A DNA stretch of 64,000 nucleotides from a virus. Its lineage: Duplodnaviria; Heunggongvirae; Uroviricota; Caudoviricetes. The stretch is taken from the IMG/VR virus record IMGVR_UViG_2529292828_000009; one strand, written 5' to 3'. Both the position numbers and the translations under genes were made by a program. The notes beneath the pieces are model-generated. The model was not told where the DNA came from, ran no database searches, and saw only the letters and a list, made by a program, of their open reading frames with translations. This document shows, piece by piece, positions 32,669-63,659 of this stretch (positions within the stretch are counted from its first letter, which is position 1; the number at the start of each line of letters is the position of its first letter).

Positions 32669-32704
32669 TGGTGCGAAGGTGCGAAGGTGCGAAGGCCGGA
32701 CTCG
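32669..32704. repeat. Degenerate copy of the leuX 3-prime end (distal att of the P4-like island), with triplicated TGCGAAGG
   Basis: GGTGCGAAGG TGCGAAGG TGCGAAGGCCGGACTCG matches tRNA-end sequence GAAGGCCGGACTCG. Confidence 0.6.
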
Positions 32705-33055
32705 CATATTCATTTAAATTGTTGTAAAAAATGGATTTTATTAATAATTAATTCAATTATGCCCCCTTTTGTGCCCCCTCCATTCGCTGTTCACATTTTG
32801 ATTTTTGTTGATTATTTATCCAAAAATTATCGAAGAAATAGTCAATCCAGTTAGGTTCCGTTAAACGGATCCAAACCGGGACTTGACTCAACAAAAAATA
32901 CTTTTTTTTCGCAAAACCATGCACACTATTCACTCTGCAACTTTTAATTTATATATCAATTGGTTATGTATTAACAGTTAGGTGAAGAGTGAACTGCTAT
33001 CTCTACATTCGTACGTTTCCAATAAGAAACCCGGCATCAGCCGGGTTAGTTGTAA

Positions 33056-35440
33056 TTATTTGATTGTTAGCTCATCACACTTGGGAAGCCAGTCTGCATT
33101 ACTTTCCTCTTTTAAAGTGAGGTTAGTCTGCATTCCCTGATTAGTTCGCCGCTTCTCATAATTTAGCCCGTATTCCTTCAGCATAACTGGTAGCCCTTTG
33201 CCAAACATTGTCAGGCTAAGGGTATTTTTAAAGCCATTAGCCTCCATGTATACGAGATAGGCATGGTAAAGGTACGTACGTGGCTGGCGCGGGACAATAT
33301 TGGCGTTCCCCATAAACATGCCGTTGGTGTCAGGTAATGCCTCAAGGTAGCCACAAAAATCAAATGCTGGATCAGCATCACGCTTGATGGTGAGAGCCTC
33401 ATCAGAATTCTGCTGCGACTGAAGCAATGTTCTGGCGCTCATCGGATCGCTGAAACGCTGCATGAGCTGACGAACAATCACAGCCAGTTCTCGTGCAATT
33501 TTATCTTTCAACTGCGGATCGCGTTCTTCCGGTGCTATCTGCTCAGGAAAATGCAGAATAACTCTCCTGCGGGACACACCACCACTGCGATCAGTGAAGC
33601 GCATAGGATTATTATTTACGGCCAAGATAACCGCCGGAATATGTGTTGAATAAGCATTCTGATATTTGGGGTCCACAGATACTGCATCGCCACCAGTTAT
33701 AGCCTTAAGCCCGGCGCCGTCGCCGCTCCACTTCTCCTGATCAGGCAGGCGAATAAGAGAAAAACCTATCAGAGCCGCACGTTCTCGCGGGGACTCCAGC
33801 GTTTCAATGGTCGCAGAGGTGGCGTTATCCTCTCCAGCAAGCATGGTCGCAATTTCAGCCAGAATACTTTTGCCACTTCCACCAGGGCCAGTCACTTCCA
33901 GAAAGAGCTGCCAGTCATAACGGTTCGCCAGCACCATAAATAACGCTGCAAGAATAATGTCGCGTTTTGCTGGCTTGTGTCCGGCGGCCCGGTCCAACCA
34001 ACGCCAGAATGCCGGGGCATGAGTTTCAAGCGTTTCCCCCTTTACCGGTGGCGTGAAATCGACTTCACACAGGGTACGCAGCCAGTTCTCTTTACAGTGC
34101 GGACTAAAAAGCCCTGTTCGCGTATCGAGAACGCCATTACGAAAACCAATCAGATGACGTGACGGATTTTGCTGCTGCGGAACAATTAACTTTAATGTTT
34201 CCACCAGTGAGGCAATTTTTCCTGAGGAAAACGGTGCCCCGAGGCGCTGGAAAAGGGCTGCGACATCTCGGGCAAAATCTGACTGAGAAATAACTTTCCA
34301 CGCTCCAGACTCGTAGCGGGATAAAAGCTGCCCGTTCGGATCAACCGCCAGTGCATCCCTGTAATGCTCCCGAACCCTCTGAGCTTTTTCGCTGACACTC
34401 ATCGCTGTGAATTCTGCTTCACTCATTGTGTCGAAAGGACTGGCGTTATGTGGCTTCAAAGCCTCAAGAATTGCCTTCCGGGTGGATTCCTCTCCGTATT
34501 GGGTAAGCGCATCATTCCAGTCACCAAAAACCGGTGGCAGCACAATGTCACACTGACTCGCTTTTGCAGCAGTTTCAGCCCTGTTCTGGCCTGAACCATT
34601 CAGATCGCGGTCCGCTGCAATAATTAACTGATATCCAGGATACTTATTATGGGCAACGCTGCTCAGAGAAAGAAAGTTGACCGACGAAAATGCCACCATG
34701 ACGGCTTCTCCTGTCAAATAATGAATGGTAAGCGCCGTGGCGTAACCTTCCGTAATCCAAATCCTTCTTACAGAACTCCCGCCCCCTTCTATCAGATGAT
34801 AGGCCTCCTTAACCTGACCTCCTTTAAGAAAACACTTGCTACCATTGCTACTGATAAGCTGAATATTCACCAGCTCCCCGTCAGCGTTATAGAGTGGGAC
34901 GATCAAATCACCGGGGCGGAACATCACACCACCGGCCTTATGAGCTGAAGTCAGCTCATGGCAAATATGCTCCGGGAAACCTTTATGTGTAAGATAAGTG
35001 TTTCCGGCAGATTCACGCGAGGCTTGCAGCAGTCGCGCGGCAAGTGCTGCCGCTGCATCTTTCCCGCTATCGGTATCGGCGGTTAACGTCCTGACCTCGG
35101 AATTAACTATAGACAGATCATGTGTCAGTCCATGTATCCTGTCAGCTGCTTCACTGATATCCACATTCAGTGCCCTGGTGACAAGCGCTAAACCATCCCC
35201 GGCTCCGCACTGATTGCAGAACCATGTTCCGCGTCCTTCCTGATCGTCGAAGCGAAAACGATCTTTACCGCCACAGACCGGGCAAGGCTGATGGCGATTT
35301 TTCAATATATTCACGCCCAGCGCTGGCAGAATCTGAGCCCAGTGACCGCGGGCAGCCTTCACGGCCTGACTGACTTTCATTCCTGACATGACGCAGTTCT
35401 CCCTCAGTGTAAAACCGGCTTTTTGATGTGACGGACGCAT
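33056..35440 (-). CDS. P4 alpha-like primase / helicase
   Basis: N-terminal zinc-binding CPVCGG...CNQCG, central Toprim-like region, C-terminal Walker A GPGGSGKS; true start probably at MSGMKVSQ. Confidence 0.8.
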
Positions 35441-35727
35441 AACTCATCCATTACGGCTATTCCGAGCTGGGAGAGTGCGGGACAGGACATTAGAGGGCCG
35501 TATTCCATCAGGTCTGAAAGCAGGGCGCAGGCGATTTCCATGCCTTTTGTTTGCCCGTGCTGTCGCAGATAAAATCCTTCAAGCTCACGGGCAATAGCGG
35601 TTTCAATTTCATCCAGAGTGAGCTGCAGATGGCGGTTTTGCTGATAGCAGGCACTCAACCAGGCGCAGGCTACCGCGCGGCGATACAACGCTACCCGAAG
35701 TGAAAGGGAAAGAGTGCGTGATTTCAT
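35404..35727 (-). CDS. P4-like hypothetical protein upstream of primase
   Basis: 107 aa ORF, position. Confidence 0.3.
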
Positions 35728-35987
35728 TGCACCACCTCCATGTTCATGAGGTCATCCTGGCAACGCTGTACCACGCCATCAAGCTGCTCTGTCATCAGAT
35801 AAATCAGGGAAACCAGTTGTTCACATTGAGCACTGGCAGGTTTTTCGTAGCAATCCTGAAGAACAGCCATTCCAGTGACAAACTCTCCCACGTTACGAAG
35901 ATGCTTCAGGCGGAGAATATCGTCATAAGAGATTGCGGCGTGATTCATTAGATCACCTCCCGGACAGGCAGGCGAGCAGCAAGACAA
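35724..35987 (-). CDS. P4-like hypothetical protein
   Basis: 87 aa ORF, position. Confidence 0.3.
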
Positions 35988-36139
35988 AGCACATACTCAT
36001 GGACCAGTGAAAGACGTGCATGATGCTCATTGCTGGCGATGATACGCAGCATACTGATACGTGGTTTACGTTCTGCACGACGAACGGCGGCAAAAACAAA
36101 TATAAATTGAGGATGTGACGGGGCGAGGATCGTAGCCAT

Positions 36140-36410
36140 AAGGGCAACCTCCAATAAGTAGCGGTAAATGCCACCACCGGAGTTCCTACGCTCATGGGTG
36201 GTGACCCGAACGGGGGTAGGAATACCGGCCTTATTGGAAACCGGCCAGCCCGAAGGCTGCCCCGCCCGGACCACCATTATCTGAAAGGGGCTAAGGTATA
36301 AGCACCGCAGCCCGAAAAATGGGTGTGCCTGAGCAACGACGTAAAAAAAGACGCACGGCGCGTCTGGTGTCGCCAATAAGTAACTCGGGTTCCTACGCCC
36401 GGCAGCCGAT
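36140..36410 (-). ncRNA. Candidate structured RNA / P4-type RNA immunity region (direct repeats flanking a complementary element)
   Basis: CCAATAAGTA...GTTCCTACGC at 36151-36191 and again at 36373-36400; complementary GGCCTTATTGG at 36227-36237; GC-rich, no convincing ORF. Confidence 0.35.
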
Positions 36411-36492
36411 TTTGCGGCAGCGGGAAAACTATACCTGGAAAAGATATCAGGACGCAAGCCAGAAAAAAGGAGATGAGACTGCAAAGCAAGTT

Positions 36493-36753
36493 TCACGCAT
36501 GGCCTCCTTGCTCGCGGGCAGCAATTCGCGCCGCCATCCATGCACTGACCTCCGACTGTACCCAGGCCACATTTTTTCCACCCAGGGATATCTGCTGCGG
36601 GAAGGCATCGCGGCTGATAAGGTCGTAGATGGTTGAACGGGATAGCCCGCAAAGGTGCATCACTTCAGGTAATCGTATGAAGCGCTCCTGCTGAGCCGGA
36701 ACCGGGAGCACCGGAGCAGCTGGTGCCGGGGTGGAAACGGAAATACTATTCAT
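36493..36753 (-). CDS. AlpA-family phage transcriptional regulator / excisionase-like
   Basis: [25 protein letters not shown]. Confidence 0.75.
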
Positions 36754-37299
36754 CTGGCTACCTCTCTAATATGTTTACAACAGTCCGGGCAATTCCATGC
36801 GGATTCAGGTAGCTCCTTATTATGTTTATATAAGCGGCTCGCGCATGCTTTATTTATTTTGTGTGAAATGTTGATTTCTCAAAAAATAAAACAGCTAAAA
36901 ACCGTATGAAACGAACAAAAACAAACAATTCCTTTATGGAATATAATAAGGAGCATCAATAATAAAAAAGTCTATTACACTAGGCAGGATCACAGCTCAA
37001 ATCTGAACCAGCCCATATCATTCAGGGCTTTACATCATAAGCACTAAGACAACACCTGATTAATAAAAGAGCCAAAAACGGCCAAAAATAAACAGCTCAC
37101 CATATGTATCAATAAATCCGATGATTAAAGAAATTAAATTACCATCTTACTTCCGCATGTATCCGAATGTGTTTAATGAACATCAGACAAATTCATTTTT
37201 ATGAATATTTTCCTGAAATGCAACTGAGTGCAGGGAGGTTGAATGTTCAATTATTAAACAGATATAAGACATCTTTTATTCTTTACATAGAATATGTAT

Positions 37300-37503
37300 T
37301 GAATACTGGTGAATATTGGTGAGGAGAAAAGATCCAGTAATAAACTGAAATAAATATCGCGACTTATATGAAAAAGAAATATATGTTTAATTTTATCTCT
37401 GTGAACAGTCATGAACAGTAGATGATCACTTTAATTAAAACACTACACCACTTAACCACATGTATTTACTATATTTTTATTGAAGTGAACAGTAGTGAAT
37501 AGT
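37300..37503. repeat. Clusters of tandem 9-10 bp repeats (GTGAACAGT / GTGAATAYTGG) upstream of the sid-like operon
   Basis: gtgaacagt at 37401-37409, atgaacagt 37411-37419, gtgaacagt 37485-37493, gtgaatagt 37495-37503; gaatactggt gaatattggt at 37301-37320. Confidence 0.5.
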
Positions 37504-37625
37504 ATGTATTAAAGGAAGCGTGTAGATCAGACATGACACCTTTCTCTGGCTAGCCAGAACAAGGTCATTGTTCAGTCACTGACACAATCCTCCTCGGTAG
37601 TGCGCTTGTATGGACCCCGGCACAA

Positions 37626-38411
37626 TTGACACAACAACAAAACACTACCGGAGCAGCCATGACAACTGTTAACCAGATCTCTGATGCAAACATTACCCCC
37701 ACCCTCCCGCCGAAAATTCGCGAAGCGGTGGAAAAAGTTAAGGCAGCAAAAGCTGTCTGGCAGGAAGAACGGCGAAAACAAACCGAAGCTGCTGCAATGA
37801 CTGAAACTATCCGTAAACGTCAGGAAGATACAAAAACGGAGACGCAGGCGCTTAATGATGAATGGCGAAACCTGTTTCGTGAGAATCAGGGGAATATGAC
37901 GCCACGAATGAAAAAACTGCGGGCAGAAATCGCCCTCGGACGCGAAACACTAGATGAGTTCGAAGATTTGCTGGCTGCTCAGGCTGCAGAAAATGAATTC
38001 CTGCCATGGAAAACTGCGGATGCTGCAAACCGCTACATCAGCGAACATAATCACCTGATTGAAACTCATGCAGTGTGGCTCTGGAATGAGTTTATGAAGG
38101 AACACGGCCAGAAACTTATTCAGATCCTTGGACTGCTGAAAATGACTCTGGGCCGAAGCGCATCTTCTGTTATCGGTGTAGTTCATACCGTAAACGACCC
38201 CGAAAGTGTGCTGAAGCAATTTATCAGCGAGCAACTCACCACTCCGGCACTGTTCTGTAACGTATCTTCAACGGATGATATTGCCCTGCCGGGGATCAGC
38301 ATTTATGCGGACGATAAAGCCATACAGGATGCCAGACAATCACCCAGCCCTGCAGCACGTTCCCGGATGCTTAAACAGCGTGACATGGCTAAAGGGGGCG
38401 AGAAGGAATGA
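37626..38411 (+). CDS. P4 Sid-like protein (putative external scaffold / capsid size determination)
   Basis: 261 aa coiled-coil-rich protein first in the psu-containing operon; assignment by position. Confidence 0.4.
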   Translation: MTQQQNTTGAAMTTVNQISDANITPTLPPKIREAVEKVKAAKAVWQEERRKQTEAAAMTETIRKRQEDTKTETQALNDEWRNLFRENQGNMTPRMKKLRAEIALGRETLDEFEDLLAAQAAENEFLPWKTADAANRYISEHNHLIETHAVWLWNEFMKEHGQKLIQILGLLKMTLGRSASSVIGVVHTVNDPESVLKQFISEQLTTPALFCNVSSTDDIALPGISIYADDKAIQDARQSPSPAARSRMLKQRDMAKGGEKE

Positions 38412-38962
38412 ATACCGGAACCATTACTCAGGAAGCTCTCAACGATTACCGCGCGGCAATAAAAAGCTGGCTGACACTACGTAATGTGCAAAGTACCAGC
38501 CAGCTTCGTCTGGCTGCTTTGCTGGATACTGAAGAAAAACCCGCAGCATATGCCAGCCAACTTGAGGATCTTCGTGAGCGTCTTGCACTCCTCGAATGGC
38601 AGATTAACTGTGCCGCCCGGGATGGTCTTTATGCTCACCAGATTGTGCTGGAAAGCTGTGTTACAAGCGCAACTGAAAACTTCATGAGCGAGCATGGTGA
38701 TGCACTCACTGACGCTCTGGCTCCTTTTCTTTGTGCACCATACGGGCTTGAGGCGGCAATGAAAATATTACGAACCGCTGTAGCCCGACAAACGGAAGTC
38801 CGTACTCCGGTAATTTCAGCAGCATATAAGAGCATTATCGACGAAACCGGATTAACGGTGGATGCATCAATGCGCGCTGATGCTTCAGCCAGTTTCACCC
38901 CGGCACAACATAAAGTTTTCCTGGCCCGCCTTAACCGACTTAATGAAAAAGGAGTGTGCTGA
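38408..38962 (+). CDS. P4 Psu-like protein (polarity suppression / capsid decoration)
   Basis: 184 aa; HGDALTDALAP and SFTPAQ motifs resemble P4 Psu as I recall it. Confidence 0.55.
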   Translation: MNTGTITQEALNDYRAAIKSWLTLRNVQSTSQLRLAALLDTEEKPAAYASQLEDLRERLALLEWQINCAARDGLYAHQIVLESCVTSATENFMSEHGDALTDALAPFLCAPYGLEAAMKILRTAVARQTEVRTPVISAAYKSIIDETGLTVDASMRADASASFTPAQHKVFLARLNRLNEKGVC

Positions 38963-38963
38963 T

Positions 38964-39236
38964 ATGGCCCTGAAGTGTCCTGAATGTGGCGCGGTCGCTC
39001 ACGCCAGAACCAGCGCCTATGAAGCTCCGTCGGTTAAACGCTCATGGTATCAGTGCCAGAATCTGGAATGTTCCTGCACATTTACCGCACTGGAAAGCGT
39101 GGATACGATAATTATGAAGCCTCGGTGCAATGAACAGGAATCAGACAAAGCAAAAATACCGGAAAAACAACAGCAAACTCTCAATCGCTATGGCTCCGCG
39201 TCAAAGCTGTCAAACCGTCAGCAAATTCCTGTCTGA
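38964..39236 (+). CDS. Ogr/Delta-family zinc-finger late transcription activator
   Basis: MALKCPECG...YQCQNLECSCTF; start at 38964 with AAAAAGGAG upstream. Confidence 0.75.
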   Translation: MALKCPECGAVAHARTSAYEAPSVKRSWYQCQNLECSCTFTALESVDTIIMKPRCNEQESDKAKIPEKQQQTLNRYGSASKLSNRQQIPV

Positions 39237-39842
39237 TTAGCAAAATACGACCACGAAGTCCCGGTCCAGTACCGGGATTTTTTACGCCTTTTCCCTGGCT
39301 GGCCTGAGAGCGTATGAGTGCATATCTATGGCGCATGAAAACGCATGAGTCTCATGCGCCATTTTTGACGCGAAAGCCCTTGTGTGGTGGCTTCTGAGAC
39401 GATTTACGGGGTGCATGAAAACCAGTCTGTTAAGCGAAGCTGGCAGGCGGGCGGGGCTGCTCGCGCTAAGGGAGAAAATAGCAAACTCAGCCGCGCAGGC
39501 GGTGACAATGATTGACGAGATACTGGCTGGCAGTTGCTGAAATCTCCGCAATGATTCAAGAACTGCAGTGTATCGATGCAGCACACGTAAACTGAGCGGC
39601 GCTACGGGTAATATTTATAGATTTGTCATCCTTAGTGAGCATGGTTCTCACTCTTGTAACCTCTACCTGTACAAGATATCGTAAGACCTCAGATCAAACA
39701 TGCACGTGTATTAAAGGTGGGCAAGCGTGGCGGGAAGATAATTGTGCGCACTGTAGTCAAAGATAGGGATTGTGATTACTTTTTCTTCCAGCCGTGGTGT
39801 AGTAAATTATTGGGAACAAACTCTTAATGACATCAATGGATA

Positions 39843-41141
39843 ATGATTATGACTACAAATCCGGACGGATACATCTCATTTTTAAAACCCGGTAGTAACG
39901 ACTGGAAAGCATTAGATAGTAAATCGTTTATTTATTGGCGAGACTACATAACGAATGAAAGTTTAGAAGAGTCAGGAGATTCTATTTCTCCAGCACAATC
40001 TCTTACTGATGGTGAAAAGAAGGAGTTGAAAGACAATCAGGCATATATAAACGAACTATTACTAAAATCATTACAATTCCCAAATCTTGCATTCTTCGCT
40101 GGGAGTGGTACTTCGCTTGGGGACGTTGGAGGACCAAGCATGTGGGATCTCTGGAAGTGTGCAATGTGGAGTGAATCTTCTATAAACGAGGATGGTCAAT
40201 TAAAACCTGATGCTCAAATTGTTTGTGATAAAGTAAAATATAAAGAGCGAGAGTATCCTAACATAGAACACTTTCTTTCTAATTGTGAAGCATATTTAGC
40301 ATTTCATGATGATGAAGAAGTGTTGAATTTTTTAAATAAAGTTAAAACAATTATTTTAGACAAATGTCGCTCATTTATTGATGATGGCAACTGTGATCTT
40401 TCAGCTTACATCAATTTATTACAAAAAATGGGGAGGAGGAGAGTCAGAGATCCTAGACTAAAAGTTTTCACAACTAACTATGATTTAGCCTTTGAAACAG
40501 CTGCTTCTGAATTAGGAATGATGGTAGTTGATGGTCTTTCATATACAGGAGTTCGCAGATTCGATGGTAAATATTTTAACTACGATGTTGTTAAAAGAGA
40601 TGAAAACGAGCATGAGTTTGTAGAGGGCGTATTCCAGTTATTTAAACTCCACGGTTCTGTAAGTTGGATAAGAAAGGATGGGCAAATATATGAATCCAGC
40701 CAACCAACAGCAACAAACGCATGTCTAATATATCCAGCGAAAGGTAAATATCAGCAAGCCTTTATTCAACCTCACTTAGAATTACTTTCAAGATTGTTAG
40801 ATTTCTTGAGAAAAAGAAATAACTGTTTAGTTATATCTGGATTTGGTTTCAATGATGACCATCTTTCTGAACCAATTTACTCAGCAATAAAATCCAATCC
40901 AAGCATGAGGTTGATTATAGTAGATTTCAAATGTGCAACTCATATTCGGAATAAAGGGGGGGACGGTTCTAGTAAATATTGGGATTTACTAAAACAACTC
41001 TCACTATCAGGTTATGACATTCACTTCATAAATGCATCTTTCAGTGATTTTGTTAAATTAGTTCCCAATCTTAAAGCATTAACCCCAGCAGAACAGTTGG
41101 CTAAGGTAATAAAACAAGTAGGAGTTAACAATCAATTATGA
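39843..41141 (+). CDS. SIR2-family (sirtuin-like NADase) protein, partner of HerA
   Basis: FFAGSGTS Rossmann loop, VFTTNYD, KLHGS motifs; 432 aa. Confidence 0.7.
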   Translation: MIMTTNPDGYISFLKPGSNDWKALDSKSFIYWRDYITNESLEESGDSISPAQSLTDGEKKELKDNQAYINELLLKSLQFPNLAFFAGSGTSLGDVGGPSMWDLWKCAMWSESSINEDGQLKPDAQIVCDKVKYKEREYPNIEHFLSNCEAYLAFHDDEEVLNFLNKVKTIILDKCRSFIDDGNCDLSAYINLLQKMGRRRVRDPRLKVFTTNYDLAFETAASELGMMVVDGLSYTGVRRFDGKYFNYDVVKRDENEHEFVEGVFQLFKLHGSVSWIRKDGQIYESSQPTATNACLIYPAKGKYQQAFIQPHLELLSRLLDFLRKRNNCLVISGFGFNDDHLSEPIYSAIKSNPSMRLIIVDFKCATHIRNKGGDGSSKYWDLLKQLSLSGYDIHFINASFSDFVKLVPNLKALTPAEQLAKVIKQVGVNNQL

Positions 41142-53621: not shown

Positions 53622-53845
53622 ACAGCTAGTTGTAAACACCTTTCGTAACCTAACTCAATTGCTTAGTAATAAATTTGTGTTTAGTCAAGAAAATATTGAT
53701 CGTTATTACAGATCGATAATCTAGTTATGATAGACAATAACTATCAAGTAACAATCATCGATCGGTACAAGCAATTTTACTAAAGCGAGTCGGTCATCGA
53801 GAATCTCTGTAAACGCACCATTTAATCTGCAACCCTGGGGTTGAT

Positions 53846-54118: not shown

Positions 54119-54159
54119 AATTAATTTCACACAATCGCAAACATAAAATGAGAAAGTAA

Positions 54160-54546: not shown

Positions 54547-54553
54547 TTGTTTT

Positions 54554-54880
54554 TTGGATAAGAAAATGAAAATATACTCAATTATCACAGTTATCATTAC
54601 CACCTTCCTTCTAACCGCATGTAACAATGAACCATCGCAAGACGATATATACAATGTTTTCAAAAGTGTTGTAGATAGAACAAATACAAGTATGAAAGCT
54701 CTTGATTCAAGAGTTACAGAAAAAGATCTTTTAAGAATCGATTACGTGAAGAAAGTTAGTTGCACAGAAGAAGCAAACAATGTTTATAACTGCATTGTCG
54801 ATGCCTCTATTAGTAATATGAAACAAACAAAACCAGTAAAACTAATCAAATCTGATGGTGTCTGGAAAGAAGTTCAGTAG
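54554..54880 (+). CDS. Predicted lipoprotein
   Basis: Signal peptide with lipobox LLTAC. Confidence 0.5.
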   Translation: MDKKMKIYSIITVIITTFLLTACNNEPSQDDIYNVFKSVVDRTNTSMKALDSRVTEKDLLRIDYVKKVSCTEEANNVYNCIVDASISNMKQTKPVKLIKSDGVWKEVQ

Positions 54881-54930
54881 TAGCCTATATCAAGAAGTCT
54901 TTTAGCCCCTGCACAGGGGCTTTTTATTGC

Positions 54931-55365
54931 CTATAACCTGACGGTTCTTACGCGAACGTCATAGGTTAACTCTTTCTCAATTACTTTCATTTCATATTGT
55001 GCTTTGACAGTAGCAGAGATTTCTTCTGCTTTTTCTTGATTATTATCGATGTAATTAACAAGCGAGTTTAGCTCCCTGATAACAGCATCCTTATTGTTTA
55101 ATCTTTGTAGTAGATTGCTTGTAAGACTTTTGTATACCGAGCTAAACATAGTCATTATGTTATCAATATTACGATTGGATTTGGAATAAATCCTTTCAGG
55201 GTAGAAATACTTCAAATGGTATCCCACAAAAATTAAGTAAAGCTGGTATGAGAAACTTTTATCACCTGGCTGGTATCGTTTTGAGATATATTTATCGACG
55301 ATAATGATAAGTTGCTCTTCCAGAGTAAACTCTGGATAGATAATGTTTTTGTCCATAAAATGCAT
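54931..55365 (-). CDS. Hypothetical protein
   Basis: 144 aa ORF, AT-rich codon usage, no motif recognised. Confidence 0.35.
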   Translation of the reverse strand: MHFMDKNIIYPEFTLEEQLIIIVDKYISKRYQPGDKSFSYQLYLIFVGYHLKYFYPERIYSKSNRNIDNIMTMFSSVYKSLTSNLLQRLNNKDAVIRELNSLVNYIDNNQEKAEEISATVKAQYEMKVIEKELTYDVRVRTVRL

Positions 55366-55452
55366 CCTTGCATTAGTTAAATAGTCTTCCTGACCATATA
55401 TTTATATTTATCGCATTTATTAAACTTGTCAATAGGTGTAACCTATCAAATA

Positions 55453-55839
55453 TTATTTTTTATTAAATGGCCTATTCAACTGTTCCATAGTAAGACCGTG
55501 TCTATAAGCATTATACTGCCAATAGCTAAATTGCTCTTTGTATCTATTGTTCTGTTTTTTCAACATTTCGTTTTCGGCTTTAAGGTTTATTATTTGTTGT
55601 GCCGCAATAGTTAAGTTAGCTGGTTTCTTTAGACCAGATTTTTTCAAATTGGACAAACTTTTCTTTATTCTATATGCTTCAACAACTTCATCATGAGCAC
55701 TTAAAGATTGCCTTGTGATAGTTCTGTTTAGATTCTTATACACTGATTCACATAAATCACTCCATGTGATTTTACCGTCCCAAGTCAGTATAATGTGTTT
55801 AATTGCTTTTATTTCACTCCTGTTCAAATGTTTTGCCAT
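55453..55839 (-). CDS. Small basic protein downstream of the recombinase array (TnpC-like by size and position)
   Basis: 128 aa, 14 bp after the 624-aa recombinase gene. Confidence 0.4.
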   Translation of the reverse strand: MAKHLNRSEIKAIKHIILTWDGKITWSDLCESVYKNLNRTITRQSLSAHDEVVEAYRIKKSLSNLKKSGLKKPANLTIAAQQIINLKAENEMLKKQNNRYKEQFSYWQYNAYRHGLTMEQLNRPFNKK

Positions 55840-55853
55840 AAGTATCTCCTGTT

Positions 55854-57728
55854 TTAATTATTCAAAAGCTTATTAATTCTTTCCAAATTTTTTTCATGGT
55901 GTTGCAACCATTTGTCTGCACCATAATCACCATTTTCATAAGCGATCTGAGTTATTCTCTTTAATTGCATTACTTTCTCTCGGACAGATTGCAGTCTAAT
56001 TCTATCTACTGAGTTAATGTCCGGTGTTTCATTATCACATTCAATAAGATGATTAATTTTTGCACAAGGCTTGATTAAATAGTTATGTACACAGTAACCA
56101 AATTCAGTTAAGTGTATTGCACCTTGATTAAGGTTATCAAAATCAATTGTCAGTTCATTTGTGGGTATTGACTCCCTTTGACAGTAATTACTCCTATTCA
56201 ATTTAATAGCTTTGATTTTATCTAACATATCTTCTTCCGACACATGGTTATAAACTCTGTTCTGATTCGCATTGATACGACCAGACCATTTAGCTATATC
56301 CAGTTCAGACATTTCACCATAATGGGCTATTGTGTTTAAAAGGTGCCGTGGCTGGTGTGAGCGAATAAGTAGTGGTTTACCTTCATCATCATAATATCCA
56401 TATCGGGAAAATATATTTTTATAATTCATCTCATAGCTTTTTTTTCTTTGTATGTCACTGAAAAAGAAACTTTTAGTAGGCTTATAAAATGTGAAAATTG
56501 AAGTCATTCTTGATAAAGAAAATTGATCAGTATTGAGCAAGCATAAAGCATTACTAAATTTTATGGATTTTTCTTTATCATACCATGGAAAGTCTCTGCT
56601 AAAATTAGAACTAATAATTTCCCACAAATCACTCAATGAATAGTTGTAATCATTGTGGTTTAAGAAGCTTTTCCCACCATCCAAACTCGTTCTTTTAATT
56701 TTTAAAACACATGATTTATGATCAAATAAATGATATCCCAGTGCATGGCAAACTTGTACAACGGTCAATTTAGCTTTTTCATCAACTGTTGGGCAAAGCT
56801 CATGTCGGTAAAATTTATCCGGGTACTTTTCGCACCAGTGAGCAAGTGCTCTTGCATTTTGTGATAAGGAAAGTAATCTTCTAATCGCTTTCTTTGCAAC
56901 TGGTATCATAACCCGTGGAATCCATTTGATATTAGGGCCATACCCTTTTACCGAATAAAATCTCAAACCATATCTTTCGATACCCTTGCCATCTATTTGT
57001 GTAATCTCACAATCAGCAGGTAAGGCTAAAATTTCAGAAATTCTGCTCGGACAACAAAGTAGAAGTGCAAATACTGAACTGGTGAACTTATCCCTTGGAC
57101 TCAGTAACTCATCATTTTGAGAAAAAATATCAGCAATAGCGAGCAATGCTTCTTCATCTGGTAACTTATCGCTTCGGTGATAATCCTCAATCTCAGGAAG
57201 ATAATTGTTTTTGACTTTCTGTTTTACATGGTTTTTCCATGAGATATATCCTGACTTCACAAGATTATGTTCACACAGAAACTTTGATATTTTTTCAAGC
57301 TGTATTCCACATTTAGCCAAAACGTTACCTTCAAAATATTTACTCCCGATCTGCATTGCCTCATCGAAAACAACGGCTGTAACATTATAAATGAGACCAG
57401 TGTTCTGAACCTGCAAAAGGGCCTGTTCGAGACATCGCAAGGCCATCATAATAACCCCATAATTTTTCAATGGTTTCAATGTGTGTTGATATCTGATATA
57501 TGCTTTCGCAAAATTGATATAATCTTCGTGCATTGCATCAATGGAATCAAAGATTTTATTTCCAATCCCTATTTTTCTAAATGTGACATATCCTTTCCAG
57601 GCATACTGCTCCCAATCCTGAGTTTGGGTTAGTCCGGACAGTTGATAGCGACAAAATTTTATGAACTCATTATAATTTTCTTCTACAAGAATATGTTTTT
57701 TTGATTTGAACAAAATAATATTATTCAT
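55854..57728 (-). CDS. Tyrosine recombinase-like protein, third of three (624 aa)
   Basis: C-terminal SHQPRHLLNT ... NQNRVYNHV pattern; ATGA overlap with upstream gene. Confidence 0.5.
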   Translation of the reverse strand: MNNIILFKSKKHILVEENYNEFIKFCRYQLSGLTQTQDWEQYAWKGYVTFRKIGIGNKIFDSIDAMHEDYINFAKAYIRYQHTLKPLKNYGVIMMALRCLEQALLQVQNTGLIYNVTAVVFDEAMQIGSKYFEGNVLAKCGIQLEKISKFLCEHNLVKSGYISWKNHVKQKVKNNYLPEIEDYHRSDKLPDEEALLAIADIFSQNDELLSPRDKFTSSVFALLLCCPSRISEILALPADCEITQIDGKGIERYGLRFYSVKGYGPNIKWIPRVMIPVAKKAIRRLLSLSQNARALAHWCEKYPDKFYRHELCPTVDEKAKLTVVQVCHALGYHLFDHKSCVLKIKRTSLDGGKSFLNHNDYNYSLSDLWEIISSNFSRDFPWYDKEKSIKFSNALCLLNTDQFSLSRMTSIFTFYKPTKSFFFSDIQRKKSYEMNYKNIFSRYGYYDDEGKPLLIRSHQPRHLLNTIAHYGEMSELDIAKWSGRINANQNRVYNHVSEEDMLDKIKAIKLNRSNYCQRESIPTNELTIDFDNLNQGAIHLTEFGYCVHNYLIKPCAKINHLIECDNETPDINSVDRIRLQSVREKVMQLKRITQIAYENGDYGADKWLQHHEKNLERINKLLNN

Positions 57729-59029
57729 AGTTGATTCACCTCACTGCGATCAATCGGAATAAAAAACATACATTGATTGCAAGGAAATCCTGAATTCTGA
57801 CTCTGGCATCTACTTGAAGAAAAAAATTTGAAATGACTACTCTTTTTCGATTTGATTCCGTTCATAAAAATATCAGCGACAAATGACAATTGTTCTGAAA
57901 CAGCGGAATCAATCCTTTCAACACTGTCAGCATGATTTTTAATATAAATCCCCGCACTTGAAGTAGATGAATGATCCAATAATTCAGCTATAGTATTAAC
58001 ATTATGCCCATTCTTAGCCAGCATAGTTGCTATTGTATAACGAAGCCTACGAGGAGTAATATTTAGTATCGAACCGGTACGGTTGGATATTACATTCCCA
58101 TTATTAACAATACTTTTCAATGCTACATTAGCAATTGTAGGCTTCGCATATAATTTATTATATTCCAGAAGAATTGAACCTGTTATGGATAAATCTGAGA
58201 GTTTTTCCTCATTTAAGAAAATAGGAACTTCTCGTTTAGAATAATCATCAAGAGTTTTTCCAAGAGCTTGTTCAACAAGTTTCACTGATTGATTAGCTTG
58301 CAATTGAACAATTGATGCAACCTCTGATATTATTGCAAGTTCTCGATATCGTAGTTCTTTACCCCGTTGTTTTACTCGTGGCACTGAAATTACATATTCT
58401 ACTTTGCCATTATCTAAGTTCTTTTGAAGAAGGTCTTTATATTTCAACATAACTAACTGCTGAGGTCTTCTACCTGTAAGACTGATCAATAGTGATATTG
58501 CATAATGTGGCAGTGACAGTTCACCTTTTCTATATGCATGATTCATAGCCTTAATCAAAGAAGTATGTTCTTCTTTATTTAATGGTCCCTCTGTTGGATC
58601 ATCTTGAAGCACAGACTGACCAGATTTTTTTATTTTTAGGTCCAAATGCTTTAACAGTTCTACCGCACTTTCATCTATTCCCGGATATCCTAACTCAAAC
58701 CATTTAATCAAAAATGGTCGTAAAACGCGAAATGATGCTGGGGCTTTTGATAATTTCTTATTTTGATATTCAATTAGAACCTTATCATCAATATGAGTAG
58801 GAGATAGTTTACGGATAAGACTCTCCATATTTCTAACAATATTTTTCACATACAAATAGCTGTTGCTATTAAAATAATATTGTACTGTATATACAAACCC
58901 ACAAACCAAATTTTCGTTCATAGCATATATTAAGTTTGTAAGATTGATTCCGTTATTTTCAATCGAACTGACGACTTTATGTTCATGCAAAGACATTTTA
59001 TCAGATTTATTTTTAATTAAATTATTCAT
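57725..59029 (-). CDS. Tyrosine recombinase, second of three
   Basis: LTGRRPQQL ... RRLRYTIATMLAKNGHNVNTIAELLDHSSTSSAGIYIKN; start MNNLIKNK overlapping upstream stop by 8 nt. Confidence 0.6.
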   Translation of the reverse strand: MNNLIKNKSDKMSLHEHKVVSSIENNGINLTNLIYAMNENLVCGFVYTVQYYFNSNSYLYVKNIVRNMESLIRKLSPTHIDDKVLIEYQNKKLSKAPASFRVLRPFLIKWFELGYPGIDESAVELLKHLDLKIKKSGQSVLQDDPTEGPLNKEEHTSLIKAMNHAYRKGELSLPHYAISLLISLTGRRPQQLVMLKYKDLLQKNLDNGKVEYVISVPRVKQRGKELRYRELAIISEVASIVQLQANQSVKLVEQALGKTLDDYSKREVPIFLNEEKLSDLSITGSILLEYNKLYAKPTIANVALKSIVNNGNVISNRTGSILNITPRRLRYTIATMLAKNGHNVNTIAELLDHSSTSSAGIYIKNHADSVERIDSAVSEQLSFVADIFMNGIKSKKSSHFKFFSSSRCQSQNSGFPCNQCMFFIPIDRSEVNQL

Positions 59030-60224
59030 CAAATTCTCCTTTGAATAGTTGCTCTTGTTGTTCAAGTGCAGTTTTTTTCGATAGCTCATAAATATGCCTG
59101 CGATTATAAATCATTGAAGTTTCTGAACCCGGTCGCCATCCCATGAGATAAGAACGGATTTGTTGCTCTTTTTCATCGGATATGTCCTGATTCTTGTCTA
59201 TTGCTTTCGAAAACTCATAATTCCATGTATGTCTGAGTTTGTGACCTGTCAATCCCCCTAGAAGTGAGGAGGATTGACGAACAACACTCACCACTTTGTG
59301 ATATGAAGAAAATGAAATAGGTTGCCCTTGAGTTTTTCCTTCCTTATAAGTAATAAACAGGAAATCATGTTTGTTAGAATTTTTTATGTTTCTTCGATCA
59401 TTCAGAATATAATCTGAAATTTCAAACATGAGCTTTTTATCAGCAATTAATTTCCTCTCACAAGTTTTAACTAAAGGCTGATACACTCGCGGATCTGTTT
59501 TATCATTTGCTCTTCTTCTTATTGCAATTGTCGATTCTGCAAAATCTATATCACCAATTCGCAGATTCAAAAGTTCACCTGCTCTCAGGCCAAAGCAGTG
59601 TAATAGCAGGAATATTAGATTGTTTCTTTTTTGCACTTTTTCTGAAAAAGGATTTAATTTGCTACCCGGTGCAAGAATGCTAAACAAAGAATCCAATTGT
59701 TCATTATTTAAACTTTTTTCTATATCCATATTATATTTATCATTATTTCTCGGTTTCTTTCGTTTTATGTTGTTAATGAAATCTAAAATATATTTGAGAG
59801 TATCCTTCTGTCCTGTATGAGAAAGATGTATTTTGCACAGCCATTCCAGATAGTTAGCTATGGTTGTTATCCGAAAGTACTTAGTTGGTTTTTTGACATT
59901 TGAACTTCTAAAATTATCATTCTCGCCATCTCGAAAATTGAATGAAGTGAATTCGATCAAATCTTCAATTTCATGAGGAGCCAGAAATATCCTTTTCTGA
60001 ATTCTTTCATCAATATTGATCTCTTTCCTCATAAAGAATCGATATAACAATGAAATGCTACCGGCAATAACCTTCATTGTTGATATAGACTCTGACCGAT
60101 TCCTGACCTGTGTTGTTATATACAAGTTAGGATAATACAATGGTTCACCAGTATTTTTATTTACGATATGACAATATCTCTCACCATTTTCGAACATAAA
60201 AGAATCCACACAAATACTACGCAT
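59022..60224 (-). CDS. Tyrosine recombinase, first of three
   Basis: GLRAGELLNLRIGDID ... GHKLRHTWNYEFS ... MIY catalytic-domain pattern. Confidence 0.6.
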   Translation of the reverse strand: MRSICVDSFMFENGERYCHIVNKNTGEPLYYPNLYITTQVRNRSESISTMKVIAGSISLLYRFFMRKEINIDERIQKRIFLAPHEIEDLIEFTSFNFRDGENDNFRSSNVKKPTKYFRITTIANYLEWLCKIHLSHTGQKDTLKYILDFINNIKRKKPRNNDKYNMDIEKSLNNEQLDSLFSILAPGSKLNPFSEKVQKRNNLIFLLLHCFGLRAGELLNLRIGDIDFAESTIAIRRRANDKTDPRVYQPLVKTCERKLIADKKLMFEISDYILNDRRNIKNSNKHDFLFITYKEGKTQGQPISFSSYHKVVSVVRQSSSLLGGLTGHKLRHTWNYEFSKAIDKNQDISDEKEQQIRSYLMGWRPGSETSMIYNRRHIYELSKKTALEQQEQLFKGEFDE

Positions 60225-60519
60225 ATTTTCCTCCTAAACTTTACAAAAAGTATAATTCCAATATATTAATAATAAGCATTTCGTAGATTTACAAATTTAT
60301 TTGAATTGATTAAGCCATTTAGTTAAATTAAAACAGTGAGATAGATGTTTATTCCTGTCAAATTATCATCTGGTAGATCTAGTTATTATTATGTACACCT
60401 AATACCTCGAAAACTATCTCACTGCCTTGCTAATAAACGATCATAAAAATAATGTAAGTTATTCTGTAAAGTTTTAAGCAAAAATATACAGCCAAACTTT
60501 ACATTTTCATAAATATTTA

Positions 60520-60819
60520 TTAATCCAACAGATATAGAATTATCCGCTTCGCCAAGAGTTTCATTTCATCAGGGCATTTAATTAGCGAGAACCAGGTCTC
60601 GTAAACATATATCTGTTTGGAAGCATTAAGCTCAGAGATCGAGTCTAAAGGTTCTCTCAAATTTCCTACAAGGTACTGACTGAGCCAGTAAATTATTTCT
60701 TTATTAAACTCGTTATTGGGTAAGTCATAAATCACTTCTTGGTCAAAGATCTTGTAAAACCGATCTCCGCATAAATTGCACATATGGTTATCCTCACTCA
60801 CAAATTCTTCGATATTCAT
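60520..60819 (-). CDS. Hypothetical protein
   Basis: 99 aa ORF downstream of the AlpA-like gene. Confidence 0.35.
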   Translation of the reverse strand: MNIEEFVSEDNHMCNLCGDRFYKIFDQEVIYDLPNNEFNKEIIYWLSQYLVGNLREPLDSISELNASKQIYVYETWFSLIKCPDEMKLLAKRIILYLLD

Positions 60820-60840
60820 AAAAATCTCTCCCAGGTTTAA

Positions 60841-61047
60841 TTAAGCAACATTAATTCTGCTTGATTCGATAACTGATTGAATCCACTCGTCAACTTCACT
60901 CTCGACAAAAGCAACGGCACGAACACCGATCTTAACGGGGGCCGGAAACCGACCTTCACTGATCAGACGATAAATCCAGGCCTTGCCGAAACCAGTTCGT
61001 TTCAAGACTTCTGGTAAACGAATTAAGCTTTGATTAGTTGTACTCAT
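60841..61047 (-). CDS. AlpA-family regulator / excisionase-like
   Basis: LIRLPEVLKRTGFGKAWIYRLISEGRFPAPVKIG HTH. Confidence 0.7.
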   Translation of the reverse strand: MSTTNQSLIRLPEVLKRTGFGKAWIYRLISEGRFPAPVKIGVRAVAFVESEVDEWIQSVIESSRINVA

Positions 61048-61213
61048 TTGGCTGTCTCCTCCGCTTCCGTTACGAAGATATTAGCCACACAGATTCGTAT
61101 CTATGAAGGGAATGCTGATAACTGAAAAGTTAGATGAGGGAAGAATGAAAGGAAATTCCGGGGAAGAAAAATATTTACGCCCTCCCCTTGACAATTAACA
61201 TGATGATTTACAA

Positions 61214-62044
61214 CTAGAAAGATCCGAGTTCCGAAATCGGTATGTTGCGGAGATGGCTGTTTTTGCTGATAAAATATTCCAGACTACGGGTTGTTTCGCC
61301 ATTCAATGACTTCTCTGCAACAGGCCTGTCTGTATCTTTAATGTGATCTTCTCCTCTGATCTCATTTGTAAAGTCGGGATACAAGACACGAGACAAGACC
61401 ATATTTGAGATTTTTACTTTTTTAAACTTTGCCCAAATCAATAAATCCATCATTGGGATAATATTGTAATCGACAAGTTTTCTTATTTTTGCAAGTCCAA
61501 TTTTTTCTGTTTTCACTGGCTCAATTTCATATTCTTTTCTAAGATCTGGTAGCATCGTTTGTAAGGCTGTTATAATTTCTTCATCGCTGGACATTCCTAA
61601 ATCAAATGAAACATACATCTTGCTGCTATTTTGGTTAAGAAAAAAGTCCCTCATAGTTTTTGTAATTGGCTTCTTTTTCAACTCTTTTTTGAAATCGCCA
61701 TTTTCTTCAAAAAAATCCATGCTAAACATTATTAACTTGTTCTCTAATTTTTTTATATCACCAAAGCTAACCTGCGCAACATGTCTTTGGCCCTTGCCAA
61801 AATGACCATGATTATTATCTTGTATGCTTAAAATAGGATTACCTTCAAGGATAGACCTTAAATTTTGATTATCATCTTCCCAACCAAAATTTACACTGTC
61901 GAAAATCGCTTCTCTAAAGGCAAGCTCTGTATGCAGTTCTTTGATTGTAAGTGATTTTAACTGCTCATAGTTTTCGAGACTAAACCAGCTTTTTAATTCT
62001 TCATAAGGGCTTACTACTTTCATTAATCCCTCCACTGTATTCAA
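61214..62044 (-). CDS. Hypothetical protein adjacent to the integrase
   Basis: 276 aa ORF, no motif recognised. Confidence 0.4.
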   Translation of the reverse strand: MNTVEGLMKVVSPYEELKSWFSLENYEQLKSLTIKELHTELAFREAIFDSVNFGWEDDNQNLRSILEGNPILSIQDNNHGHFGKGQRHVAQVSFGDIKKLENKLIMFSMDFFEENGDFKKELKKKPITKTMRDFFLNQNSSKMYVSFDLGMSSDEEIITALQTMLPDLRKEYEIEPVKTEKIGLAKIRKLVDYNIIPMMDLLIWAKFKKVKISNMVLSRVLYPDFTNEIRGEDHIKDTDRPVAEKSLNGETTRSLEYFISKNSHLRNIPISELGSF

Positions 62045-62134
62045 AGCTTGAATGAGTTAACACTGCTTATTTGAATTAATTCTCCCTTAACAAGGTTGAT
62101 AAGGGAGAACGATTAATTAACTACTTATTCATAG

Positions 62135-63385
62135 TTAAGTCTTTTTAAAATCAAATGGTGAAACTTGTCGTATTCTAAGGAGGTCAAGGTAATCGGCCCA
62201 CCACTGCAACATAAGCTTTCTCTCATCAAGGTGCTGTGCTTTATGTATGTAGGCAGCACGAACTGAGTTCCGCTCCTGATGGCTCATTTGCCGTTCAACA
62301 GCATCTTTCGACCACAAGCCGGATTCAATCAAGGCACTACAAGCCATAGCCCTGAATCCATGTCCACAGACCTCCACGGTTGTGTCATAGCCCATAGCTC
62401 GCAAAGCTTTATTAACTGTGTTCTCGCTCATAGGTTTGCGGAAATTATGATCGCCAATAAATACGAGTTCATGGTCACCACTGATCTCTTTGATTTTCGT
62501 CAGCACAGCCAATGCCTGACAACTCAAAGGAACAAGATGTGGAGTTCGCATTTTCGAACCACGGTGCGAATGTTTGACCCCTGGCAATGGTTCGCGTTCT
62601 CCAGGGATAGTCCACATCGCATTTTCAAAGTCGATCTCCGACCATCTTGCGAATCTGAGTTCACTGGAACGAATGAAAATGAGCAATGTAAGCTTTACGG
62701 CTAACTTAGTGAGTTTTCTACCCTTGAAGCTATCTATTCGTTCTAAAAGTTCTGAGAATCGTTCGAATGGCAAAGCTGGCCTGTGGACTCTTTTAGCTAC
62801 CGCAATAGCTCCTGCCATCTCTTGAGCAGGGTTGTAATCTATCAGCCCGTTCTGGACAGCATATCGCATCACTGCCGTTGTTCTTTGCTGTAGGCGGGAA
62901 GCAACTTCCAGTCGCCCAGAAGCTTCAACAGCCTTGATAGGGGCAAGAAGATCTCTGGTATTAAGCTCGGATATTTTTCTTTTACCAATAGCAGTAAAGA
63001 GACCATCTTCCATGCTTTTTAGAACTCTCTCGCTATGGGAATCTGACCATTTCCTTTTACAAGCCTTATGCCAGTCCCTGGCAACAGATTCAAAAGTAAG
63101 AGCTTCGCTCTGCTCGATCTTGTCTGCCTTTTTCTTCTCGGAAGGGTCGATACCATCAGATACCAACTTTTTAGCCTCATCTCGTTTCCTGCGAGCTTCA
63201 CCAAGAGAGACCATTGGATAAACACCCAATGCTAAAACTTTCTGTTTGCCATCGAAACGGTATTGGAGTCGCCAGTATTTTGAACCATTGGGGTTGATCA
63301 GCAGGTGCATACCCTGCCCATCTGTGAGTTTGAAAGGTTTGTCGGAGGGCTTGGTAGTCCTAACTTTGATATCGGTGAGAGCCAT
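62135..63385 (-). CDS. P4-family tyrosine integrase adjacent to leuX
   Basis: 416 aa; homologous to the integrase at 42898-44169; lies directly 3-prime of tRNA-Leu. Confidence 0.9.
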   Translation of the reverse strand: MALTDIKVRTTKPSDKPFKLTDGQGMHLLINPNGSKYWRLQYRFDGKQKVLALGVYPMVSLGEARRKRDEAKKLVSDGIDPSEKKKADKIEQSEALTFESVARDWHKACKRKWSDSHSERVLKSMEDGLFTAIGKRKISELNTRDLLAPIKAVEASGRLEVASRLQQRTTAVMRYAVQNGLIDYNPAQEMAGAIAVAKRVHRPALPFERFSELLERIDSFKGRKLTKLAVKLTLLIFIRSSELRFARWSEIDFENAMWTIPGEREPLPGVKHSHRGSKMRTPHLVPLSCQALAVLTKIKEISGDHELVFIGDHNFRKPMSENTVNKALRAMGYDTTVEVCGHGFRAMACSALIESGLWSKDAVERQMSHQERNSVRAAYIHKAQHLDERKLMLQWWADYLDLLRIRQVSPFDFKKT

Positions 63386-63574
63386 CAGTTGATACCTCCA
63401 GTGTTGGTACCAAAATCAATCGAACCGGGAATACCATCAGTTATACCATCATCGGTTGGTATATGTTCAAGGAACTGAGTAGACGTGAACAGACTAAGCC
63501 AAGTTAGAAACCTGCTTAACTTACTGTTTTTATGGACTAAAGTAGACGTTAGTAGACTTAAAAAAAGCTTTGTA

Positions 63575-63659
63575 TGGTGCCGAAGGCCGGACTCGAACCG
63601 GCACGTATTTCTACGGTTGATTTTGAATCAACTGCGTCTACCGATTTCGCCACTTCGGC
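63575..63659 (-). tRNA. leuX: tRNA-Leu (leuX-type)
   Basis: Reverse complement reads GCCGAAGTGGCGAAATCGGTAGACGCAGTTGATTCAAAATCAACCGTAGAAATACGTGCCGGTTCGAGTCCGGCCTTCGGCACCA. Confidence 0.9.

Follow-up and report, generated by a model that had tools for sequence, protein, structure and literature searches.

Results

Two Islands Delimited by Copies of the leuX 3′ End

The locus described here lies in a stretch of 64,000 nucleotides, hereafter the window, that is held in IMG/VR as the virus (Caudoviricetes) record IMGVR_UViG_2529292828_000009. It carries two integrative elements, island 1 and island 2, side by side at the Escherichia coli tRNA gene leuX, and the present analysis suggests that they accumulated there by successive site-specific recombination with the end of that gene. 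ARAGORN calls one tRNA in the whole window, a tRNA-Leu(CAA) gene at 63575–63659 on the minus strand, and its position upstream of ahr identifies it as leuX. The last 24 bases of leuX, from the T-loop through the CCA end (63575–63598), read TGGTGCCGAAGGCCGGACTCGAAC on the plus strand and constitute the core of the attachment (att) site at the gene. The same 24-mer recurs exactly, on the plus strand, at 44321–44344 (site B, the middle att), where an intact leuX 3′ end separates island 1 from island 2. No further copy is present in the window when up to three mismatches are allowed, and 0.00 copies are expected in shuffled sequences. A decayed leuX 3′ end at 32669–32704 on the plus strand (site A; TGGTGCGAAGGTGCGAAGGTGCGAAGGCCGGACTCG) forms the outer, distal att of island 1. 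Relative to the core, site A has lost one C and an 8-base unit has been expanded to 3.8 copies, as counted by Tandem Repeats Finder; its last 14 bases (GAAGGCCGGACTCG) match the core exactly. All three copies of the leuX end have the same orientation. Across the approximately 1.8 Mb of loci that were fetched for comparison, the core is confined to att sites associated with leuX.

Each of the two intact copies has an integrase gene next to it on the minus strand. Int1, the integrase of island 1 (42898–44169), ends 151 bases from site B, and Int2, the integrase of island 2 (62135–63385), ends 189 bases from leuX. Both proteins have the domain architecture of the P4 family in Pfam (Arm-DNA-bind_3, Phage_int_M, and Phage_integrase), and they are 58% identical across their full length. 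The base composition of the two segments differs: the G+C content is 35.3% in island 2, 44.4% in island 1, and 49% in the remaining left part of the window. An initial annotation of the window had proposed that the leuX end is repeated exactly at site B and in degenerate form at site A, that a P4-family integrase lies just inside each repeat, that the two integrases are homologous, and that the leuX-proximal island is AT-rich; the repeat search, the Pfam architectures, the alignment, and the base composition agree with it on all of these points. It had also named a scatter of the 24-mer over many unrelated genome positions as evidence that would count against its reading, and the confinement of the core to leuX-linked sites indicates that the repeat is not a scattered one.

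Island 1 Is a P4-Like Satellite That Carries a SIR2–HerA Pair

Island 1 (32705–44320), 11.6 kb in length, is a P4-like phage satellite. Its int/att, crr, alpha, ORF106, cI-epsilon, and ORF88 regions are colinear with those of P4, and the markers recognized by Pfam, namely alpha, DUF5375, Ash, AlpA, two Psu-fold proteins (sid-like and psu), and Delta, are in agreement with the RefSeq gene names of the same element in the E. coli genome D6. The region of Int1, which is the ortholog of P4 Int and contains the motifs RSSELR, GHGFR, and AAYIH, is 88.5% identical in DNA sequence to P4 int–attP over 1.4 kb. The P4 alpha-type primase-helicase gene (33056–35440, minus strand) is 72% identical to P4 alpha at the DNA level, and its product has the Pfam domains Zn_Ribbon_Prim, Toprim_3, D5_N, DUF5906, and Pox_D5. 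A small DNA-binding protein of the AlpA/Vis family (36493–36753, minus strand; Phage_AlpA, E = 4e-20), colinear with P4 ORF88, is a candidate excision directionality factor. The capsid-size and late-control block (37626–39236, plus strand) consists of a sid-like gene with a Psu fold (37626–38411), psu (38408–38962; Pfam Psu), and delta (38862–39236; Pfam Ogr_Delta). Between delta and int, in the variable hotspot of the satellite, are genes for SIR2 (39843–41141, plus strand; PADLOC, E = 7e-82) and HerA (41138–42859, plus strand; PADLOC, E = 2e-166).

Thus island 1 shares with P4 and the P4-like satellites of E. coli (PMC9122126) the integrase, the attP core, arm repeats on both arms, the genes for alpha, ORF106/DUF5375, Ash/Icd, and AlpA, and the sid-, psu-, and delta-like genes, and its integration target, leuX, is that of P4 itself. 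SIR2 with HerA is among the cargo known from the P4 hotspot, which is placed next to int, between psu and int, in that study (PMC9122126). The differences are that the order of the late genes is sid–psu–delta in island 1 and sid–delta–psu in P4, that these genes have diverged from those of P4 beyond DNA alignment, that the P2/P4 cos sequence is not recognized in island 1, and that the distal att of island 1 is decayed. A G+C-rich stretch at 39434–39470 occupies the place where cos would be expected.

Island 2 Is an Integrative Mobilizable Element with Variable Defense Cargo

Island 2 (44345–63574) is 19.2 kb long. Counting from leuX, it encodes Int2, a DUF6387 protein (61214–62044, minus strand; Pfam, E = 5e-78) that serves as a backbone marker for this family of elements, an AlpA-family small DNA-binding protein (60841–61047, minus strand; Phage_AlpA, E = 6e-20), a 99-residue protein, a four-gene recombinase operon, several small open reading frames, a MobA/VirD2-type relaxase, and a block of cargo genes. 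The AlpA-family protein also matches the NCBIfam “excise” domain, at an E value of 1e-4 that is below the cut-off, and is the candidate excision directionality factor of this island. The relaxase gene (52431–53621, plus strand; Pfam Relaxase PF03432, E = 5e-23) contains a perfect (CCTGCT)x11.8 repeat at 53262–53332 that encodes (Pro-Ala)12; the relaxase genes of related elements vary in length, so the number of Pro-Ala repeats may vary too. No domains of type IV secretion systems, coupling proteins, or a conjugative apparatus were found among the island 2 open reading frames scanned. With an integrase, att sites, and a relaxase and without conjugation machinery, island 2 fits the description of an integrative mobilizable element.

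The cargo comprises a Kiwa system (44671–46223, plus strand; kwaA, 44671–45279, PADLOC E = 9e-77; kwaB, 45276–46223, E = 2e-115), a membrane protein of the 8xMP/RipA family (46288–46959, minus strand; Pfam 8xMP), and a type IIG restriction-modification enzyme (47012–50290, minus strand; Pfam Eco57I and N6_Mtase; PADLOC REase_MTase_IIG, E = 2e-156). Both islands therefore bear anti-phage genes. A further cargo gene pair at 50900–51671, which encodes an 85-residue DUF4160 protein and a 179-residue protein with a weak match to an addiction-module antidote family, may be a toxin–antitoxin pair.

The ends of island 2 and the backbone at 52431–63574 are common to many E. coli islands with differing cargo, and the best E. 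coli match for the island as a whole is 91% identical over 69% of its length. Relatives of Int2 are widespread: the protein is 73% identical to the leuX integrase of E. coli ES7, 100% identical to a Citrobacter integrase, and 87–100% identical across about ten genera, including Citrobacter, Erwinia, Rosenbergiella, Xenorhabdus, and Pantoea, a spread that is indirect support for a putative mobilization of island 2 by helper elements. The same backbone (DUF6387, AlpA, the 99-residue gene, optional recombinase operon, relaxase, and variable cargo) was also seen at the ssrA (tmRNA) gene, in loci from E. coli H6 (L007, the ssrA locus) and NCTC9041 (L008); the copy at the tmRNA site has a different integrase, which lies at the opposite terminus.

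Each Island Has Its Own Pair of Repeats on Both Arms

Flanking each core are pairs of short direct repeats spaced by 12 bases. In island 2, two copies of ATACCATCA form a distal-arm pair (44398–44418, plus strand; 54–74 bases from the core) and an integrase-proximal pair (63431–63451, plus strand; 124–144 bases from the core). In island 1, the motif is ATGCCCC(C) (ATGCCCCC), again paired on each arm: the distal pair TTATGCCCCCTT and TTGTGCCCCCTC lies at 32757–32780 (plus strand; 53–71 bases from the core) and the integrase-proximal pair AAGATGCCCCTA and ATTATGCCCCCA at 44184–44207 (plus strand; 116–134 bases from the core), where Tandem Repeats Finder reports a period of 12. The pairs of the two islands thus lie at matching distances on corresponding arms. 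The 9-mer ATACCATCA occurs seven times in the window against an expectation of 0.56, and in an unbiased scan it defined the only 7-mer family with two separate 12-base-spaced pairs, an outcome seen in none of 200 shuffles.

The pair at 44398–44418 is absent from D6, which has island 1 only, and is present at the distal end of the single-copy island 2 relatives in 602354 and Citrobacter. Because this boundary evidence places the pair beyond site B, both ATACCATCA pairs belong to island 2. The initial annotation had given the coordinates and sequence of these pairs correctly and had assigned one pair to each integrase; the assignment does not hold, since both are in island 2, one on each arm. 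Its suggestion that they are arm-type binding sites has gained strength from sequence comparison with P4, whose GenBank record annotates an “attP arm sequence repeat” on both sides of a 20-base “attP core.” The island 1 pairs correspond to these annotated repeats, and the distal pair is 96% identical to one of them (P4 4149–4172).

In an alignment of five integrase-proximal arms, the pairs share columns and the motif varies with the integrase clade, being ATACCATC for Int2, ATACCCGC for the ES7 leuX integrase, and ATGCCCCC for Int1 and P4 (58% identical to Int2). The arm-binding domain PF13356 is present in both integrases and is their most diverged part, with 50% identity vs. 63% in the catalytic domain. 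Across 76 distinct arms of Int2 relatives, most positions of the ATACCATCA motif reach at least 90% conservation; phylogenetic footprinting of these arms gave only weak contrast, the entire arm being rather conserved. It is well supported by these comparisons that the repeat pairs are putative arm-type integrase binding sites, with a separate motif for each element. The integrase-proximal arm of island 2 also contains AGTAGAC(G) three times (63478–63557), conserved in relatives, which may be a site for another recombination protein.

The Islands Occur Singly in Other Genomes

Comparison with other genomes, among them 5,426 complete E. coli genomes, showed that the two segments also occur apart. 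Positions 24000–44344 of the window (20,345 bases) are 100.0% identical, in one piece, to D6 and several other genomes, and the match stops at 44344. In D6 the body of leuX follows directly after 44344, such that island 1 is the only element at the gene, and this solitary state was found in at least 20 further complete genomes. Conversely, genome 602354 has a relative of island 2 alone (91% identity over 69%, with the same ends). At its far end, GGTGCGAAGGCCGGACTCGAAC is followed directly by ATCGCAAC; that is, the decayed outer copy, here with four 8-base units, is joined to the distal arm of island 2. A member of the island 2 family is likewise present in single copy in Citrobacter (L009). 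Independent tandems were also found: in ET210 the array consists of a P4-like satellite and an island 2 family member that both differ from those of the window, with the P4-like element distal, and Photorhabdus (L071) has another tandem at leuX.

An artificial empty-site query, with the left flank joined straight to an intact leuX, matched 1 of the 5,426 genomes, and the exact junction between island 1 and island 2 was found in none. Outside this set, positions 37012–60290 of the window are identical to contig AQDV01000058.1 of assembly GCA_000355555.2, the junction was seen in just this assembly and one read set, and an identical type IIG gene was found only in one strain record and one read set. 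Among the other islands encountered at leuX, that of E. coli ES7 (L004, 2318–4239) has a thymidylate synthase gene and an alpha-glutamyl/putrescinyl thymine pyrophosphorylase gene beside its integrase. Genes of these kinds are usually linked to hypermodification of phage DNA.

A Model of Serial Integration at leuX

Collectively, these data favor a model in which two independent integrative elements accreted in tandem at leuX as each in turn recombined, by means of its integrase, with the 3′ end of the gene. We assign this model a probability of roughly 85%. Serial integration at one tRNA gene had been suggested for the window at the outset, and the comparison with other E. coli leuX loci supports it: each segment is found alone elsewhere, with boundaries exactly at the repeats, so the two are not always inherited as one unit, and independent tandems exist. 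In this model, the attP of each element carries the leuX end, T-loop through CCA, as a stretch of 21 bases in island 1 and 24 bases in island 2. The integrase would exchange strands within this copy, so that leuX is rebuilt from element DNA and its former end is pushed to the far side of the insertion, and a second element with the same core could then enter the rebuilt gene. The crossover would be confined to GAGTCCGGCCTTCG by the identity that the tRNA shares with the decayed outer copy and the P4 attP.

The most likely order is that island 1 was resident first and that island 2 entered the leuX gene that island 1 had rebuilt, which would give the observed arrangement of decayed copy, island 1, intact copy, island 2, and leuX. 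Island 1 is placed first because it, together with its fim/nan flank, is 100% identical to the sequence shared by many genomes without island 2. Island 2 is placed second because it has a different history, with a best E. coli match of 91% and an integrase identical to one from Citrobacter. Each island would bring its own recombination kit, consisting of a P4-family integrase with an arm-binding N-terminal domain, a protein of the AlpA/Vis type, and a 12-base-spaced repeat pair on each arm, and the two probably share specificity for the core and not for the arms. Since each has its own integrase, AlpA-type protein, and arm motif on both att sites, either island would be expected to excise separately. 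A composite circle of both islands would carry mismatched arms.

Several points weigh against this model or parts of it. The three att sequences fit the reverse order of arrival equally well, with island 1 entering the distal att of a resident island 2, and the D6 state could derive from the tandem by loss of island 2. The decayed outer att may lower or abolish excision of island 1, and for both islands excision and circular forms are predictions from the sequence. No cos of the P2/P4 type was found in island 1 in a search with the 19-base P4 cohesive end (up to three mismatches) and by BLAST with the P4 cos junction, which leaves the competence of island 1 as a satellite unproven. Finally, cross-reaction of P4-family integrases is documented for other islands (PMC4891358), so discrimination between the arms may be less than strict.

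The reverse order, in which island 2 was first at leuX and island 1 later inserted into its displaced distal att copy, is the strongest of the alternatives and still an unlikely one. The att sequences by themselves were considered as a guide to the order and set aside, given that both orders predict identical junctions: site A would keep its chromosomal outer half, and site B would receive the intact TGGTGCC end from the island 1 attP. Against the reverse order, the distal copy is not flanked on its other side by the 5′ half of the T-arm and would be a poorer target than the tRNA gene, the background that is 100% identical over 20 kb is common to many genomes with island 1 at leuX and without island 2, and the P4-like element is the distal one in ET210 as well as in the window.

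It is less probable still that both segments arrived as one unit, either through transduction or conjugation followed by homologous recombination with the flanking chromosome or because the whole array excised and then integrated. Accreted composite islands can move as a whole (PMC4891358), and att copies of the same orientation bound the array. However, no donor with this junction is present among the complete E. coli genomes, the occurrence of the identical type IIG gene in just one strain record and one read set offers none elsewhere, and a composite attP would join arms with different repeat motifs. In addition, the match of island 1 and its left flank to strains that lack island 2 contrasts with the distant match of island 2, which points to different histories for the two. 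That the tandem is an artifact, with two leuX alleles misjoined across the 24-mer, or that the repeats are coincidental, is very improbable: the islands do share outer flanks in other strains, and a mixed culture could in principle mislead an assembler, but one would expect a mixed sample to show up as a bubble in the assembly graph and not as a tandem, the same 48-base middle junction is present in a separate assembly of read set SRR446747, natural tandems of both element families exist, and a second 24-mer is not expected by chance.

A Recombinase Operon Inside Island 2

The four-gene operon of island 2 (55453–60224, minus strand; Pfam, NCBIfam) has a layout like that of ginABCD. It encodes two tyrosine recombinases (59022–60224 and 57725–59089), a 624-residue protein without a recognized domain (55854–57728), and a 128-residue protein (55453–55839), all on the minus strand. 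Searches of Pfam, NCBIfam, PADLOC, and PDB sequences gave no match for the 624-residue protein, nor did it show similarity to the neighboring second recombinase. By description, this order is that of the GInts and the Tn6571 family (PMC5385486, PMC10214605), in which two catalytic-type tyrosine recombinases are followed by a large protein and a small protein; in both, the large third protein has no recognizable recombinase motif and the frames overlap. The island 2 operon differs in that it is embedded in a different element and brings no separate cargo. A GInt has the operon at its 5′ end, its own cargo, an AT-rich 3′ end, and short flanking repeats, and the island 2 operon does not show this organization.

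We considered whether the operon represents a nested GInt that carries the island cargo and rejected this, as the genes on both sides (encoding 99 and 144 residues) are backbone genes that are kept in relatives without the operon, such as NCTC9041. In Erwinia (L013) the flanking backbone genes are also kept, and the version of the operon between them is only 26–39% identical. Membership in the gamma-mobile-trio was rejected as well, the GmtY model scoring 36 bits against a cut-off of 340. From its context in these relatives, we regard the operon as a GInt-like module that is optional and swappable, and do not file it as a GInt.

The Outer Flank and a Recurrent One-Base Deletion

The flank to the left of site A (31253–32668) contains an HNH endonuclease gene (31253–31903, minus strand), gene fragments, one of them from a phosphorothioate-dependent restriction endonuclease gene, and a decayed integrase-proximal att arm without an integrase (32482–32668). 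The 1.4 kb to the left of 32669 adjoins leuX in the one empty-site genome, and the flank is therefore chromosomal in E. coli. Of the 5,426 genomes, 787 have it together with the outer att copy, and the island that it borders varies from strain to strain, being island 1 in D6, the P4-like element in ET210, and the island 2 relative in 602354. The possibility that it is pristine chromosome was rejected, because its last ~190 bases are a decayed integrase-proximal arm from a further family of leuX elements and are about 94% identical to the stretch between integrase and leuX in ES7; the repeat pair of this decayed arm is split by a 6-base insertion. Its content thus identifies the flank as an apparent relic of an older integration.

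Displaced leuX ends outside apparently recent junctions all share a one-base deletion in the acceptor-stem part, CCTTCGGCACCA to CCTTCGCACCA (also written as CTTCGGCACCA to CTTCGCACCA), with no other change. Deleted copies are found in at least four flank contexts and in seven genera, namely at site A in E. coli and in Citrobacter, Mangrovibacter, Brenneria, Photorhabdus, Atlantibacter, and Pseudescherichia; besides 32669–32704, they are located at L009:18718, L028:5735, L032:14168, L071:9796, L086:4758, L087:9785, and L039:9796. Intact displaced copies number only three, the middle sites of the window, ET210, and locus L041, and all three are apparently recent junctions. In Pseudenterobacter (L039) the deleted form stands in a full tRNA context, where ARAGORN calls no tRNA, and this locus looks like the product of excision between leuX and a deleted outer copy. 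In E. coli, the outer copy was fused to a tRNA body in none of the 787 genomes with the flank. The shared deletion may have been inherited from a small number of element lineages, or it may come from a mutational hot spot or from selection.

With a crossover upstream of the deleted base, a leuX gene that had lost its last island by excision would have the defective end. This raises the speculative idea, which we consider improbable at present, that the outermost leuX copy is more than random debris and that the array is locked in, a working leuX depending on the retention of at least one island, and that new integrations can repair a broken leuX.

The Left Part of the Window

The left end of the window (1–20007) is the repressor-end half of a Mu prophage, in which the repressor, MuA, MuB, Gam, portal, and MuF genes were recognized. 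The left end of Mu lies at 19985–20007 on the minus strand, where 23 of 23 bases match. Mu has inserted in fimF after codon 37, with the 5′ end of the gene at 20008–20118. In D6 the gene is continuous at this position, and the insertion probably disrupts the expression of fimF, fimG, and fimH in the strain of the window. Between fimA and fimE is the invertible promoter element fimS, with its 9-base inverted repeats (TTGGGGCCA) at 24865–24873 and 25170–25178.

Discussion

leuX is a classic integration hotspot, and the locus described here is an ordinary instance of a known process, tandem accretion, that changes no current view. Accretion of this kind at tRNA genes is known from the ICESt1/CIME elements (Pavlovic et al. 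2004, as cited in PMC4891358) and from the islands at the asn tDNAs of Klebsiella (PMC4891358). The second element in such arrays uses the att or tRNA end regenerated by the resident, as proposed here for island 2. The arrays are alike also in that islands in series, each with its own integrase, have direct repeats of the tRNA 3′ end between them. The integrases within an array need not be close relatives; they are 58% identical in the window and 74% identical in the Klebsiella asn tDNA islands (PMC4891358). The leuX array differs in that its partners are of two classes, a phage satellite and a relaxase-bearing mobilizable element, in that the cargo is anti-phage instead of virulence genes, and in that the array is known from its DNA sequence.

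A second comparison is with PAI II536 of uropathogenic E. coli, which is alike in its leuX target, its P4-family integrase, and the direct repeats of the leuX end (18 bp) that flank it, and which can excise. In contrast to the array, it is a single island of ~100 kb with virulence genes. Deletion of PAI II536 reportedly damages leuX, and this would parallel the effect predicted here for the decayed outer copy.

The cargo of both islands also has precedents. P4-like satellites with SIR2–HerA or Kiwa in the hotspot have already been catalogued (PMC9122126), and defense-carrying integrative mobilizable elements have been described at E. coli hotspots (PMC10121019; reviewed in PMC5704250). Island 2 shares with the latter an integrase, att sites, and a relaxase and has, as they do, variable defense cargo between conserved ends (PMC10121019). 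For its backbone, composed of DUF6387, AlpA, the optional gin-like operon, and the relaxase, we found no name; it is associated with differing integrases, at leuX here and at ssrA in H6. The array is therefore a clear, well-bounded example of anti-phage gene sets accumulating at one tRNA hotspot, and it points to an unnamed and widespread mobilizable backbone in the Enterobacterales.

The array is also of use for the study of recombination. The related integrases of a satellite and a mobilizable island have the same core target and different arm repeats, and the arm pairs, which are found at fixed distances from the core and whose motif tracks the integrase clade, make the locus a reference case for att annotation of P4-family integrases. 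It further provides a natural substrate for asking whether stacked islands excise separately. The recurrent deletion in displaced tRNA ends is the sole element of this work that could lead to something new: if lock-in of the array at leuX were true, it would account for leuX being almost never empty in E. coli.

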